A DNA stretch of 64,000 nucleotides, taken from a plasmid. A model generated the notes under the pieces. The model was not told where the DNA came from and ran no database searches. It was given only the letters and a program-made list of their open reading frames with translations. This document shows, one piece after another, positions 13,743-21,667 of the stretch; position 1 is the stretch's first letter; the number at the start of each line of letters is the position of its first letter. Made by a program: the position numbers and the translations under genes. The DNA is taken from sequence record NZ_CP086424.1. One strand, given 5' to 3'.

Positions 13743-14251
13743 GGCAATGCCGTTGCCAGGCGTTTGTTGGCATGTTGGCTGCGCTCGGTTTCAACCCGCA
13801 CCGACAGGCCGCTGGCGATGTGGGTCGCGCGGATGGCCGAGTCTGTGGTGTTCACGTGCTGCCCTCCTGCGCCCGAGGCGCGGCAGGCCTGAAAGTGGAT
13901 TTGCTTATCCAGAGCCTTGTCATTGACCTCAAACATCTGGCCGCTGAAGAACCAGTTTTTGCGTTTGTGCCCGGGTCTGAAGCGGCTTTGGCAGCTCCAG
14001 AGCATGGCTCCCTGCCAAGACAGCGCCAAGTGCTTGGCCCGGGCTTCATCATTGGCACTGAGTTGCAGCAAGACCGACTTGAAGCAGGCGACGCCGGTTT
14101 TAGCGTTTGCCTGAGTCACCTCCAACAACTCGCAGCCTATGCCTTGCGCCTGACACTCCCGCTCTATGGTTTGCACCGCCAGGGCCACAGCGCGGCAGCA
14201 TTCAATCGGGCCGGTTCCGGCCGACAGTTGCAGTAGTATCATCAGCAGCAC
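13694..14251 (-). CDS. prfH: peptide chain release factor H-like protein (GGQ motif), 3' end replaced at the 3'-CS junction
   Basis: [39 protein letters not shown], a class I release-factor GGQ domain. The start overlaps the rtcB stop. The last roughly 15 codons derive from qacEdelta1-side sequence. Confidence 0.75.
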
Positions 14252-15405
14252 TCCCCGTTGGTTTTGAAGGTCAGCACAGGGCGCAGCCTGGCAACAACCT
14301 CAATCAAACCGGCATCGACCATATCGCCAATCACAGTCGCACATTTTTTGTAGGCCTGGGGCGCTTCGTCATACAGCAGTGTCTTGTTACCGCAGATCAC
14401 CCGGCTTCCCAGGGCGGTGAGGTAGAGATCTTCACGGCGGAACTTGTGCGCCAGGCGGCCCTGACACTCGCCGCGCTGCCATTTTCTCCCGGCACCATGA
14501 GCCAGGGAAAACAGGCTGATGTCGGCGGCATCGCCCGCAGCGGCGCAGGGTTTCACCAGGTAGCTGTAGTCGCCGCGGGATCCCGGGATCACCACATAAC
14601 CCTTATCGCTCGGGGTGGCGCCTTTTCGGTGCAGCCAGCCTTGGGTTCCGTTTATGCACTTGGGGGATACCAGATTGTGGTTCACATCCAACACCAAGCT
14701 GCCAGAGCTGTTGATCGCTTCCAGGAAGCGACAGGCTATCAGCTCGCGGTTCAACTCAGCCCAGCGTAGCGCCTCATCGTGTTTGGCCAGATAGTCGCTG
14801 AACTCGCTATCTTCCGGACTCAGGCCTTGGTGGCTGTGGCGGCGGATATGTTCCTGCAAAATTGCCTGCCCCAGGCCTCTGGAGCCGGAATGCACCAGCA
14901 GTTGCAGATAGCGGCTGTCCAGCCCCAGCTCTTGCAGCGCCGCCTGGTCATAGACAGTTTCTATCGCTTGAAACTCGGCAAAATGGTTACCGGCACCTAT
15001 GGTGCCCAGCGCCTGGTCAAAGCCTGTGATGGCTATGCCTTTTTCCCGCTTGCGCTCGGCAATTGTTTGCGCCCAGGTTTCATCCAGAGGCTGTTCTATC
15101 TGTTTGAACTTGTTTGCCATCTTATCCAGCTTGACCTTGGATAGCTTCAGCGAGCTCTGCCACAGTGACATGCCGCAGCCAATGTCGTTGCCGACCAAGG
15201 CAGGATAGATTCTGTTGACGGCAAAAAACGCCGCACCAATGGGATAGCCTCTGCCGGGGTGCAGATCCGGCATTCCTGCCACGTGCTGCATACAGGCCAA
15301 TTCAGAGGTTTTAATCAGTTGTTGTATTGCCAGCCCTTCTACCCAGGTTTCTTTGGATGCAATCAGGCTGACGCTTTCAGTAAGTTTTTGGACGGATCTG
15401 CCCAT
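14242..15405 (-). CDS. rtcB: RtcB-family RNA ligase (387 aa), paired with prfH
   Basis: RtcB motifs (metal-binding His/Cys, ...HGAGR...). Confidence 0.85.
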
Positions 15406-15742
15406 AGACCAATTCCTTTAAACAGGATTTAAACGATAAACGTATTGGCAGGCCAGTTGACCGAAGCGATAGCTTTACCAGAAAGCTATGAAATCAGTGG
15501 ATAGCTTTCTGCTATTTAGCGGACAAGACCTGCAAAGGAGGTTGATGTGTTTTGCATGATGTTTTCTCCTCTACAGTGAATGAATGGTGAGCGATGCGGG
15601 CGCATGGTAATCAGTTTGCCACCATAAGGCAAATATAAATTCAATCACTTAGCTTTATTTGCCGCCGAACCCTATGGCAAGTGCGTCAGCTTGGGATTGC
15701 GGCCGGGGCAGCCGACCGCAGAAAGAGGCTACTGTTTCAGGC

Positions 15743-15780
15743 CATGATTTAAAGTCATGATTTAAAGTCATGATTTGAAA
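15743..15780 (+). repeat. tandem direct repeat, 2.9 copies of CATGATTTAAAGT
   Basis: catgatttaaagt catgatttaaagt catgatttgaaa. Confidence 0.7.
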
Positions 15781-15819
15781 CCACACCAAGAAGCCGAGAT
15801 AGAACTTTCACTTGCCGGG

Positions 15820-16167
15820 TTAAGGCAGCGGTTGGCGGGGCTTGGCCTTGTCACTTTTGCTGTGTGCCAGTTCAAGCACTTGTTCAAAGTCCAGACCATT
15901 AATCTTTTGCCCTATCAGGCCGAAGTCCATCTGGCCGTTGCGATCCGAGTGGTTCAGCGCTGCCAATGGGGTGTCGAACTCGGCCAGTTGGATTGCCAAC
16001 AAGGCCATGACAAATTCCTGCTTGTCATGGGAGTTCAGCTGCGCCATGAGTCTGATGACATCCTGTTGGGTCGACTCTGCACTGCTGCCGTCGAAGACTA
16101 TGGTGTTGGGGGTAGTGCTGCAGGCCATCAGGCCGGTCAAAACGATAGCAATTATTATATTCTTCAT
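15820..16167 (-). CDS. putative lipoprotein (115 aa)
   Basis: Signal peptide with lipobox LMAC|S. The opposing + ORF 15775..16215 was rejected. Confidence 0.5.
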   Translation of the reverse strand: MKNIIIAIVLTGLMACSTTPNTIVFDGSSAESTQQDVIRLMAQLNSHDKQEFVMALLAIQLAEFDTPLAALNHSDRNGQMDFGLIGQKINGLDFEQVLELAHSKSDKAKPRQPLP

Positions 16168-19436: not shown

Positions 19437-19817
19437 AGCGCTGCCTATGCAGGCAAGCAGGGGTTTTGTTGGCGCCTTCCCAAAAACCTTTGCAGGCTAA
19501 CATCGGCACTCTGGAATATCACTAAAAATAAAACCTTTAAAATCATGGTTTTGAGAAGTGCTTAAATCGCGATTTTAAGGGGGGAAATCGACATTTTGAG
19601 AGCCTTTAAGTGTGTTCCATGCTCAAGGCGTCGTGAAAAATAATTCAAGCCCTTTACGGGCTGCTGACATGGCTTGCTGAATGCCAGGACTCTCCTTTCG
19701 AACGGTTTTGTTAAAAAACATATGAATACAACAACTTACTAAACATTAAAACCCGGGTTTGTATATTGAGCCGCCTTTGACAACACTTAATAGATACTGT
19801 TGTCTCGGGGGATAGTT

Positions 19818-20576
19818 ATGCGCTTGCTGCTTCCGCTATTGCTCTATTGTTGCAGCGTTCAGGCTGCCGTGGGGCTTGGTCAACTCAGATATCTCACGGA
19901 AGAGTATCCACCCTATAACTTCAGCCTGGATAATGGGGAAGTATCCGGATTTGCCACCGATGTGCTGCGGGCCGTTTGGCGGCGGACAGGTACAGAGCCC
20001 CAGACCATAGAACTTCTGCCCTGGGCCCGTGGTTACTATATGTTGGGGAGTCGCGATAACGTGGTGCTGTTTTCCACAACCCGTACTCAGGTGAGGGAAC
20101 CGCTGTTTCAATGGGCCTGCAGCCTTGGCACCCTGGAGCTGAATCTCTATGCGCTCAAACGCTCAGCGCCTGCGCTGACCAAGTTGGAGGATGCCAAGCA
20201 TTTGCTGGTGGCAACCGTCAGGGAAGATGTCGGCGAGCAGTTGCTGCTGAGCCAGGGTTTCGATCCGGCTTTTTTGGTACGTACCAGTAGCCTGGAGCAG
20301 GCAGTCAAGGTGCTCAACAGCGGCCGGGCCAGCTTGCTGTCCAGCAATAGGTTAACCTTACTCAGCACTCTGAGACGCGGGGGCTACGACCCCGAGATAA
20401 TGCAACCCTTGGTCAAGGTGAGTCACAGGCCCTTGTGCTTTGCCTTCAGTGCCAAGGTGCCGCCTGAACTGGTAATGCGCTTTCAAGCTAATTTGGATCA
20501 GGTGTTGAACTCTGAAGAGGGCAAAAGTCTCAGAAAACAGTACTTTCACGGCGAGACCTTACTGAGCCTGCCCTAA
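19818..20576 (+). CDS. periplasmic substrate-binding protein (family 3, amino-acid ABC type)
   Basis: GGGGGA RBS then MRLLLPLLLYCCSVQA signal peptide. Lacks other transporter components nearby. Confidence 0.6.
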   Translation: MRLLLPLLLYCCSVQAAVGLGQLRYLTEEYPPYNFSLDNGEVSGFATDVLRAVWRRTGTEPQTIELLPWARGYYMLGSRDNVVLFSTTRTQVREPLFQWACSLGTLELNLYALKRSAPALTKLEDAKHLLVATVREDVGEQLLLSQGFDPAFLVRTSSLEQAVKVLNSGRASLLSSNRLTLLSTLRRGGYDPEIMQPLVKVSHRPLCFAFSAKVPPELVMRFQANLDQVLNSEEGKSLRKQYFHGETLLSLP

Positions 20577-20757
20577 GGAAGGTGCAAACAAATACCATGT
20601 GTGCTCTGCATCGGCTTATAAGTCTGGATGCAAGGCTGTAAGCCGCAAATGGCCTTAGTCCTTTGCAAGAAGCACTTCCCTAAGAATGTGAGTTGCTTTG
20701 AAGACCCCTTTGCCAAGCTGAGGTAGACTGCAATTCTGTATTTGCAACGGAGTTGTT

Positions 20758-21237
20758 ATGCAAGTTGTCAGCTTTACCGCCATAGGCCACGCCGAAACCC
20801 AGTACACAGAACTGGCCAACATGCCGATTCAGGGCAGCAAGGTCGCCGATAATCAAGGGGTTTTGGTGATCCATCCCGACTATGCCGAAGGGCTGGCGGA
20901 CCTCGATGGTTTTTCTCATGTTTATGTGCTGTTTCATCTGCATCAATGCAAGCAGGGCGCGCTCAAGGTTAAACCTTTTCTCGATAACCAACTGCGCGGT
21001 GTATTTGCTACCCGTTCGCCCAAGCGCCCCAACCCCATAGGCCTGTCGATACTGGAAATCGACCGGCTGGAGGGCAACCGCATTCATGTTAAGGGAATCG
21101 ATATGCTCAACGGCACCCCTATCATAGATATCAAGCCTTATATTCAGGCATTTGATTGCGTGCAAAATACCCGTGATGGTTGGTACGAGCAGGGCAAAGA
21201 TCCGCTGCAAACCCTCTCTGACGACAGATTTGCCTGA
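20758..21237 (+). CDS. TsaA/YaeB-like SAM-dependent methyltransferase (159 aa)
   Basis: HPDYAEGLADLDGFSHVYVLFHLH...RSPKRPNPIGLSILEI...GIDMLNGTPIIDIKPY, a TsaA-family fold. Confidence 0.65.
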   Translation: MQVVSFTAIGHAETQYTELANMPIQGSKVADNQGVLVIHPDYAEGLADLDGFSHVYVLFHLHQCKQGALKVKPFLDNQLRGVFATRSPKRPNPIGLSILEIDRLEGNRIHVKGIDMLNGTPIIDIKPYIQAFDCVQNTRDGWYEQGKDPLQTLSDDRFA

Positions 21238-21427
21238 AGTTATTAGAGCGCACGCTTTTATCGTTCGGCATACTTAATAATGGCTGTGGTTAACATAAAA
21301 AACACTTAATCGTCTCGCCTTTATTTCATTTGTAACCAAATGATTTCAGTTGTGGCAAAAATTGTTGTTTTTTATTGAAGTGGTAGTTTGTTGACTATAT
21401 ATTGCCCCCGCTTTTTATGGGGGCTAT

Positions 21428-21667
21428 ATGAAACAAACAGTGGTAATTTTGCTGCTTACGGCAGCTTTGTCCGCCTGTGGTGGCGGTGGCGGCGATGATT
21501 CGCCTGCTCAGAAGACCAACGACAAGACAATTCACCAAGGGCTCAAGGTGCAGGATCTGCAGCTGAGCTACAGTGCCAATCAAAGGTTGCAAGTCAGTGT
21601 GCAGGGTAAGGTGGGGCAGCTCAGCTATCAGTTGAACGAGCCAAATACTGATATCCTGCGGGTATAG
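21428..21667 (+). CDS. possible small lipoprotein (79 aa)
   Basis: GGGGGG RBS, signal peptide with LSAC lipobox and Gly-rich linker. Its end abuts the predicted ISCR1 oriIS end. Confidence 0.3.
   Translation: MKQTVVILLLTAALSACGGGGGDDSPAQKTNDKTIHQGLKVQDLQLSYSANQRLQVSVQGKVGQLSYQLNEPNTDILRV

Follow-up and report, generated by a model that had tools for sequence, protein, structure and literature searches.

A Shewanella algae chromosome segment with qnrA, probably captured through ISCR1, in a complex class 1 integron of an IncC plasmid

The 64,000-nucleotide stretch of plasmid record NZ_CP086424.1 analysed here, referred to as the window, carries a qnrA gene within a 7,916-bp variable region (13744-21659), which is bounded by the oriIS end of the insertion element ISCR1 (21660) and by a partial second copy of the integron 3' conserved segment (3'-CS2, reaching 13743). 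Leaving aside one IS10 insertion, the captured DNA comes from the Shewanella algae chromosome as an unbroken piece of 6,595 bp, which runs from within prfH to within the gene of a 975-aa lipoprotein. ISCR1 complex-integron capture of this piece, carried on an IncC platform, is the best explanation overall, and a probability of about 85% is assigned to it. The route is the textbook one from an environmental chromosome to a clinical plasmid, with spread of the gene by a broad-host-range IncC plasmid. Three features make the present case useful: the donor lineage is known to within 2 bases in 6.6 kb, both junctions are exact to the base, and IS10, not ISCR1, occupies the probable expression position. 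The locus lends itself to teaching and to testing both the ISCR1 capture model and frameworks for tracing resistance genes to their origin.

It is accepted that qnrA stems from S. algae and that ISCR1 is its mobiliser (PMC3270319; PMC7782503). Ten chromosomal loci were fetched by means of the exact TrmO protein (loci used for comparison carry L numbers), and nine of them are S. algae loci with the same gene order, prfH-rtcB-lipoprotein-HNH-91aa-qnrA-SBP-trmO, where SBP denotes a solute-binding protein. All nine are colinear with the captured DNA from end to end at 97.4-98.7% identity. The alignments fall into two blocks, 13744-18124 and 19437-21238 or 19437-21659, and in the case of L049, L051, L054 and L064 they end exactly at 21659, inside the 975-aa gene. 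Alignments of kilobase length at 97-99.97% identity mean that a chance match is not an issue. The closest locus, L064, an S. algae-type contig (JBDINF010000002.1, 487 kb, assembly GCA_039616015.1), shows 2 mismatches over the 6,595 bp (99.97%); compared over 17-18 kb, this contig shares 97-98% identity with S. algae chromosomes, which is a within-species similarity. Look-up of the exact QnrA allele gave L064 and L065, both chromosomal contigs without IS10 and without ISCR1.

The sister species S. carassii, S. indica and S. chilikensis, together with the L056 type, are 71-91% identical to the segment, and other genes replace rtcB-prfH in them. The scan of species-representative genomes returned S. 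carassii, S. indica and S. chilikensis and no S. algae representative. Near-identical, syntenic chromosomal loci free of ISCR1 and IS10 do exist in S. algae, and they point to the cargo being a single, recent acquisition from an S. algae lineage like L064. An S. algae progenitor had been proposed in an initial annotation made from the letters of the window, with lack of contiguous synteny to any Shewanella chromosome as the finding that would speak against it; the nine colinear loci and L064 bear the proposal out.

The resistance island of the IncC plasmid contains a complex class 1 integron, and the region itself forms the ISCR1-associated variable part of this integron. The parts of the integron are as follows.

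29827-30840, plus strand: intI1 (open reading frame (ORF) list, profile models).
Cassette array, in minus-strand order: dfrA, arr, cmlA, blaOXA-10 and an interrupted aadA1 (ORFs and profile models).
23814-25129, minus strand: 3'-CS1, the complete first copy of the 3' conserved segment, with sul1 at 23838-24677 and qacEdelta1 at 24671-25018.
21660-23813, minus strand: ISCR1, 2,154 bp, with a 513-aa transposase gene at 21892-23433 and the oriIS end at 21660-21679.
12700-13743, minus strand: 3'-CS2, the partial second copy, with qacEdelta1 lacking its first 161 nucleotides (nt; 13557-13743) and sul1 at 12724-13563.

Integrase gene, cassettes and a complete 3'-CS1 are present, ISCR1 abuts 3'-CS1 with its oriIS end toward the variable region, and the partial 3'-CS2 lies beyond that region, followed by orf5, tniB and tniA. 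Sequence alignment showed 3'-CS2 (12700-13743) to be 100% identical to 23814-24857 of 3'-CS1 and to start at qacEdelta1 nt 162. The oriIS end, GGGTATAGGAAGTATAAACC, starts at 21660, and the ISCR1 end motif GGTTTATACTTCCTATACCC, in minus-strand reading, finishes at the same position. ISCR1 is 100% identical to that of two derivatives described below, L045 and L046. Many IncC plasmids match both flanks at 100% identity; the left flank (1-13700) contains the mer operon, IS4321 and a toprim gene, and the right one (40000-64000) traF, traG and traH. A Shewanella chromosome as the source of the window was considered and rejected. The initial annotation had set the segment limits at 13743-21659, correct to within one base, had expected oriIS near 21660-21700, which is where it lies, and had spoken of non-resistance cargo on a conjugative multidrug-resistance platform, a description with which the IncC flanks agree.

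In the cassette array, aadA1 (about 25197-26012, minus strand) contains a premature stop at 25494-25496, Gln to stop at about codon 167 of 271. This is the sole base difference from locus L063 across 3.2 kb, and streptomycin/spectinomycin resistance through aadA1 has probably been lost in the plasmid.

Toleman et al. in 2006 are said to have formulated a two-step rolling-circle model for ISCR1. Applied to the present locus, ISCR1 with an adjacent 3'-CS ending at qacEdelta1 nt 162 would have inserted into the chromosomal prfH of S. algae. A later rolling-circle event would have set out from oriIS, traversed ISCR1, sul1 and the truncated qacEdelta1, entered the chromosome and gone past rtcB, qnrA and trmO before halting in the lipoprotein gene. 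The resulting circle would then have recombined with an ordinary class 1 integron via 3'-CS homology, which would give the duplicated 3'-CS. The model would account for the orientation of the block, the gene truncation at each of its ends and the duplication of the 3'-CS. Rolling-circle formation by ISCR1 has been described as the presumed mechanism (PMC13393415).

Gene identities in the captured segment were checked with curated profile models (TIGRFAM/NCBIfam) plus Pfam on identical genes in related loci. Ten Shewanella genes or gene fragments are counted in the variable region, and the segment order is prfH' - rtcB - lipoprotein - HNH - 91-aa membrane protein - qnrA - SBP - trmO - lipoprotein', a prime denoting a truncated gene. 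The features between the two boundaries are given below.

13744-14242, minus strand: prfH', peptide chain release factor H (TIGR03072, 206.7 bits, model positions 1-158 of 200).
14242-15405, minus strand: rtcB, RNA ligase paired with prfH, 387 aa, intact (NF007153, 543.5 bits, cut-off 407; TIGR03073, 519.3 bits, cut-off 271.8).
15820-16167, minus strand: lipoprotein gene, 115 aa (ORF with lipobox LTGLMAC; exact protein present in S. algae).
16506-16940, minus strand: HNH endonuclease gene, 144 aa (Pfam HNH on the identical gene in L039; exact protein in S. algae chromosomes).
16990-17265, minus strand: small membrane protein gene, 91 aa (called as a gene in identical loci; translation with two hydrophobic stretches).
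17418-18074, minus strand: qnrA (NF000071, 514.3 bits, cut-off 450, positions 1-218 of 218).
18116-18124: left copy of the IS10 target duplication, AGCGCTGCC, 9 bp.
18125-19436, plus strand: IS10 (ISVsa5, IS4 family), 1,312 of 1,329 bp, with an intact transposase gene at 18215-19423, 402 aa (alignments to the DH5alpha copy).
19437-19445: right copy of the IS10 target duplication, AGCGCTGCC, 9 bp.
19818-20576, plus strand: SBP_bac_3 gene, orphan periplasmic solute-binding protein, 252 aa (Pfam PF00497 on the identical gene; position shared with S. algae chromosomes).
20758-21237, plus strand: trmO/tsaA, tRNA m6t6A37 methyltransferase, 159 aa, intact (TIGR00104, 142.8 bits, cut-off 93.25; exact protein in S. 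algae chromosomes).
21428-21659, plus strand: lipoprotein', the first 77 codons of the 975-aa S. algae lipoprotein gene, which breaks off at the oriIS end of ISCR1.

Both terminal genes are altered by the junctions. Native PrfH of S. algae has 211 aa; prfH' keeps about 166 of these codons, the last 45 or so are gone, and the 3' end is swapped for 16 codons of 3'-CS2 antisense with a stop at 13694, giving a 182-aa fusion. The RtcB-PrfH pair is represented by a full-length PrfH-associated RtcB and by a PrfH that is not full length. At the other end, the 79-aa ORF at 21428-21667 agrees in 77 of 77 residues with the N-terminus of the L064 975-aa lipoprotein. The exact RtcB protein is on record from Enterobacteriaceae and other Gammaproteobacteria, and the remaining listed members of its 90% cluster are S. 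algae RtcB. No NCBIfam match was obtained for the 115-aa lipoprotein, and no family match for the 91-aa membrane protein in the profile search. The genes accompanying qnrA are most likely passengers; among them rtcB, trmO, the SBP and HNH genes and the two small genes are intact.

The methyltransferase, solute-binding protein, qnrA, membrane protein, HNH, lipoprotein and rtcB-prfH genes listed in the initial annotation are all present according to the curated models and the gene calls in identical loci, and its reading of prfH as clipped at the 3'-CS2 junction holds. Its inventory overlooked the 975-aa lipoprotein gene cut by ISCR1, and its term 'IS10 remnant' is replaced by a nearly whole element with an intact transposase.

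Two further observations concern the SBP gene and its surroundings. Over 19790-20578 the nucleotide identity to L003, L004, L005 and L056 is 70-73%, against 86-92% in the flanking genes, and divergence or replacement between these sister species and S. algae appears to have a local hotspot in the SBP gene. About 100 bp of the SBP-trmO gap (20574-20675) have an inverted second copy at 82-84% identity, 8-9 kb away, in L048, L050, L055 and L064, and may constitute a small repeated intergenic element.

The qnrA gene gives a full-length match over the curated family cut-off. Its product differs from QnrA1 by exactly 5 residues (Q39R, V54I, V108I, T127A and R161H; 97.7% identity), as against the approximately 5 initially noted, and from QnrA3 by 2 residues (V54I and R161H; 99.1% identity). 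The allele is not QnrA1, QnrA2 or QnrA3. It is absent from PLSDB, where only these three occur, and the same allele is encoded by the S. algae contigs L064 and L065. Proteins of the QnrA family protect gyrase and topoisomerase IV against quinolones, and the same shielding of both enzymes is predicted here, purely from family membership.

The 402-aa transposase of IS10 is identical to that of the E. coli DH5alpha copy. The inside end of the element is intact and the outside end lacks nt 6-22 (17 bp), reading CTGAT^TGGTAAAA versus canonical CTGATGAATCCCCTAATGATTTTGGTAAAA, which leaves one of the two terminal inverted repeats intact. The target site is single in every S. algae chromosome examined, and the alignments from the two sides overlap by 9 bp at this point. 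IS10 is a simple insertion 50 bp upstream of qnrA with a 9-bp duplication, and would later have lost 17 bp at its outside end; with this deletion it should no longer be mobile as a unit. As the closest chromosome is without IS10, the insertion probably took place after the capture or in a close relative of the donor.

The outside end of IS10 faces qnrA from 50 bp upstream of its ATG, and these 50 bp are all that is left of the native upstream DNA. Simons et al. in 1983 reportedly described an outward promoter, pOUT, near the IS10 outside end, and the IS10 stretch in which it would lie is identical here to canonical IS10. In every other mobile form examined ISCR1 lies within about 125 bp of qnrA, whereas in the window it is 3.58 kb from the qnrA ATG, beyond three oppositely oriented genes. 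Because of this arrangement, pOUT most likely drives qnrA transcription here. Outward promoters are also supplied by ISCR1 (PMC13393415).

The boundaries of several qnrA captures and of an NDM module were compared in terms of the distance from ISCR1 to the qnrA ATG and of the qacEdelta1 nucleotide at which 3'-CS2 begins.

qnrA2 (L059): 20 bp; 3'-CS2 from nt 72.
In36-like qnrA1 (L060, L006): 31 bp; 3'-CS2 from nt 72.
qnrA3 (L001, L002): about 90 bp; 3'-CS2 from nt 162.
qnrA1 variant (L007): about 120 bp; 3'-CS2 from nt 143.
qnrA1 variant (pMR0211, L058): about 120 bp; no 3'-CS2 within the locus.
NDM module (L039): distance not applicable; 3'-CS2 from nt 213.
Window: 3.58 kb; 3'-CS2 from nt 162.

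The qnrA3 integrons share their nt-162 end with the window, and their segment lies wholly inside the limits of the window segment. This would be expected if the short qnrA3 form and the long form came from one capture, the short form having arisen by two-sided deletion or the long form being ancestral to all S. algae-type qnrA integrons. Nevertheless, such a common origin is unlikely. The 2.7 kb shared by the two forms contain 31 mismatches and 4 gaps (98.3% identity). Over its 2.7 kb the qnrA3 plasmid segment shares 99.8% identity with the L052/L057 lineage and 98.2-98.3% with L064 and the window, while the window segment is 99.97% identical to L064, and a six-lineage comparison points to separate clades. 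Both Shewanella-side junctions also differ. The distal one lies inside prfH in the window and between the lipoprotein gene and rtcB in the qnrA3 integrons (window-equivalent 15456; junction sequence CAACACCGACAGGG/GTTGACCG), and a deletion would have to end precisely at the 3'-CS2 boundary. Since the donor lineages differ, the comparison supports a capture independent of the qnrA3 capture, in line with the independent or longer ISCR1 capture suggested in the initial annotation on account of the extended gene content.

The Shewanella-side junctions of the two captures are 1.7 kb apart, and no shared motif is evident at the truncation points nt 72, 143, 162 and 213. As a tentative explanation for two captures from two S. 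algae lineages with an identical nt-162 end, a resident unit of ISCR1, sul1 and truncated qacEdelta1 may have inserted repeatedly near qnrA, or nt 162 may be a preferred surrogate termination site; we regard this as possible rather than probable. If true, the window and its donor, 2 bases different, would form a clean natural before-and-after pair for testing the two-step ISCR1 model.

The element is not new, being of a known kind with its exact sequence already public. The block with its flanks is 100% identical to L040 (UWVD01000002.1) and L042 over 16.4 kb and to L043 over 12.7 kb. L039 (OZ111298.1) and L047 are nearly identical; full-length copies other than L040, L042 and L043 differ by at most 1 base or two gaps. 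Identical structure was found in at least five independent assemblies. The index of the assembly collection lists 67 blocks for the exact RtcB and 67 for the exact QnrA. Of the two junction-born proteins, the 182-aa PrfH fusion occurs on 21 contigs and the 79-aa truncated lipoprotein on 32. These junction-born proteins are entered as multispecies Gammaproteobacteria or Enterobacteriaceae, with E. coli and Citrobacter koseri as named hosts, and the E. coli UniProt entries A0A2R4PDW2 and A0A2R4PDX5 come from an annotated E. coli record. No record in PLSDB (2024) or among complete E. coli genomes covers at least 80% of the region; its presence in other assemblies emerged from look-ups of exact proteins. 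No description of the long qnrA form or of its rtcB, prfH or trmO cargo was found in the searchable literature. The novelty implied in the initial annotation is lost at the database level, where the region is effectively identical to one already recorded.

Several relatives of the block show rearrangements of their own. In OZ111298.1 (L062, 419-4237), ISCR1, blaNDM, a truncated ble, a truncated qacEdelta1 (from nt 213) and sul1 lie directly upstream of the ISCR1-qnrA module, and this tandem ISCR1 array ties a carbapenemase gene to the qnrA block in one plasmid. In L041, L044, L066 and L067 (CP196129.1 and others), the Shewanella block ends in trmO at window-equivalent 20976 and is joined to a truncated TraC-like backbone transfer gene; ISCR1, 3'-CS1, the cassettes and intI1 are deleted.

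The mobiliser, the meaning of the extra genes and the soundness of the assembly all admit other explanations. Mobilisation by IS10 in place of ISCR1, whether as the remnant of an IS10 composite transposon or by one-ended IS10 transposition, is suggested by the position of IS10 inside the block beside qnrA and by its place among the mobilisers of CTX-M-8/9/25 and FosA5/6 (PMC10039890). It is highly improbable, as only a single IS10 copy is present, the 9-bp direct duplication around it corresponds to an uninterrupted chromosomal site and so denotes a simple insertion, and the ends of the block meet the ISCR1 oriIS end and 3'-CS2, not IS10. The composite transposon is contradicted by the target duplication. 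The extra genes might instead be selected cargo, the ribosome-repair pair rtcB-prfH, trmO and the SBP gene benefiting the plasmid host so that the long form persists. The rtcB, trmO, SBP and HNH genes are indeed intact and unchanged in every full-length copy compared. This intactness is uninformative because the near-identical copies leave too little time for decay. Moreover, prfH, the partner of rtcB, is truncated by about 45 codons; derivatives persist without trmO and the SBP gene (L045, L046) or without part of trmO (L041, L044, L066); and the short qnrA1/qnrA3 forms are far commoner, with 215 PLSDB records against none of the long form. Selection for the cargo is accordingly very unlikely. 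An assembly chimera joining Shewanella reads to a plasmid integron could be imagined in view of the two 3'-CS copies, ISCR1 and IS10, which are repeats prone to misassembly. Its chance is negligible: the junctions are base-identical in independent assemblies, among them OZ111298.1, CP196129.1 and UWVD01000002.1 with contigs of 132-222 kb. Both junctions are also spanned by many short-read contigs, and the fusion proteins are on record from 21 and 32 contigs. The chimera is contradicted by these independent assemblies with the same junctions.

Some points weigh against ISCR1 capture as set out above or against its details. The rolling-circle steps belong to a model, and none of them was seen directly. 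For the intermediate that it predicts, ACTTCCTATACCC/TGTTTCAAAAGCTGGAG, in which oriIS is joined to the rest of prfH, metagenome contigs gave 0 matches; the actual 3'-CS2/prfH junction, CAACACCGACAGGG/GCAATGCC, likewise gave 0 matches in metagenome scans. The 3'-CS2 start at nt 162 is common to the window (13743 = 24857) and the qnrA3 integrons (8144 in L001; 6000 in L002), which makes common ancestry conceivable. On the order of IS10 insertion and capture, the one observation is the lack of IS10 in the closest chromosome. A simple, strict consensus scan gave no sigma-70-like promoter in 17350-18400, a result that is uninformative on IS10 pOUT, and with the scan empty pOUT is assigned on the strength of what was already known about IS10.

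Among the known systems, the In36/In37-type qnrA1 integrons (p49790_MCR, L060) have the same layout of 3'-CS1, ISCR1, qnrA co-oriented with ISCR1 and partial 3'-CS2, and the same resistance function. Their variable region contains qnrA1 and ampR alone; in the window IS10 adjoins qnrA instead. The initial annotation had taken such a short content as the rule for classic qnrA1 integrons, which stands for the In36 type and fails in general, since pMR0211 carries a long qnrA1 region. The qnrA1-type DNA is 93-94% identical to the window and is closer to non-algae Shewanella in synteny and QnrA residues. The qnrA3 integrons (pECL-14-60-NDM-1-IncAC, L001; pC39-334kb, L002) are also of S. algae sensu stricto origin and share the qnrA, 91-aa, HNH and lipoprotein genes, but their segment is 2.7 kb long without IS10, compared with 6.6 kb in the window.

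In the case of pMR0211 (Providencia stuartii, IncC, L058), a long ISCR1 capture with HNH, hypothetical, U32 peptidase and PH-domain genes is found. It has the U32 peptidase where the window has rtcB-prfH, follows the L056-type Shewanella synteny and is 74-92% identical to the window. The non-algae Shewanella L056 shares the synteny of this cargo, which comprises the HNH gene, a DUF6694 lipoprotein gene and the U32 peptidase and PH-domain genes, and qnrA1 therefore probably does not come from S. algae sensu stricto. At 4682-4745 of L058 the ISCR1 oriIS end occurs twice at a spacing of 63 bp, so that the ISCR1 terminus is partly duplicated.

For the qnrA6 gene of Proteus mirabilis PS16, a published environment includes IS10 and ISCR1, the latter in two copies (Jayol et al. 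2016, as summarised in PMC7046756). In this environment IS10 lies upstream of qnrA, ISCR1 is nearby and there is a link to a PER beta-lactamase. L045 and L046 have IS10, the qnrA-to-prfH' block and the 3'-CS2 junction in common with the window. Past the inside end of IS10 they carry robA', an IS4-family element, blaPER, gst and ISCR1, with neither trmO nor the SBP gene, and their order reads ISCR1 - gst - blaPER - IS4-family element - robA' - IS10 - qnrA ... rtcB - prfH' - 3'-CS2. They may represent the published qnrA6/PER-1 context of PS16. Their qnrA (L045 6926-7582, L046 6896-7552, window-equivalent 17418-18074) is a mosaic that contains all 19 internal differences from the window over 5.7 kb. 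Gene positions 294-609 match qnrA1 at every variable site, both sides match the window allele, and the product differs from QnrA1 by Q39R and V54I only. This looks like gene conversion by qnrA1.

A further comparison is with the S. algae chromosomal loci (L048-L055, L057, L064 and L065), in which order and sequence are as in the window from prfH through the 975-aa lipoprotein gene. Unlike the window, they have no ISCR1, 3'-CS or IS10, and both prfH and the lipoprotein gene are of full length.

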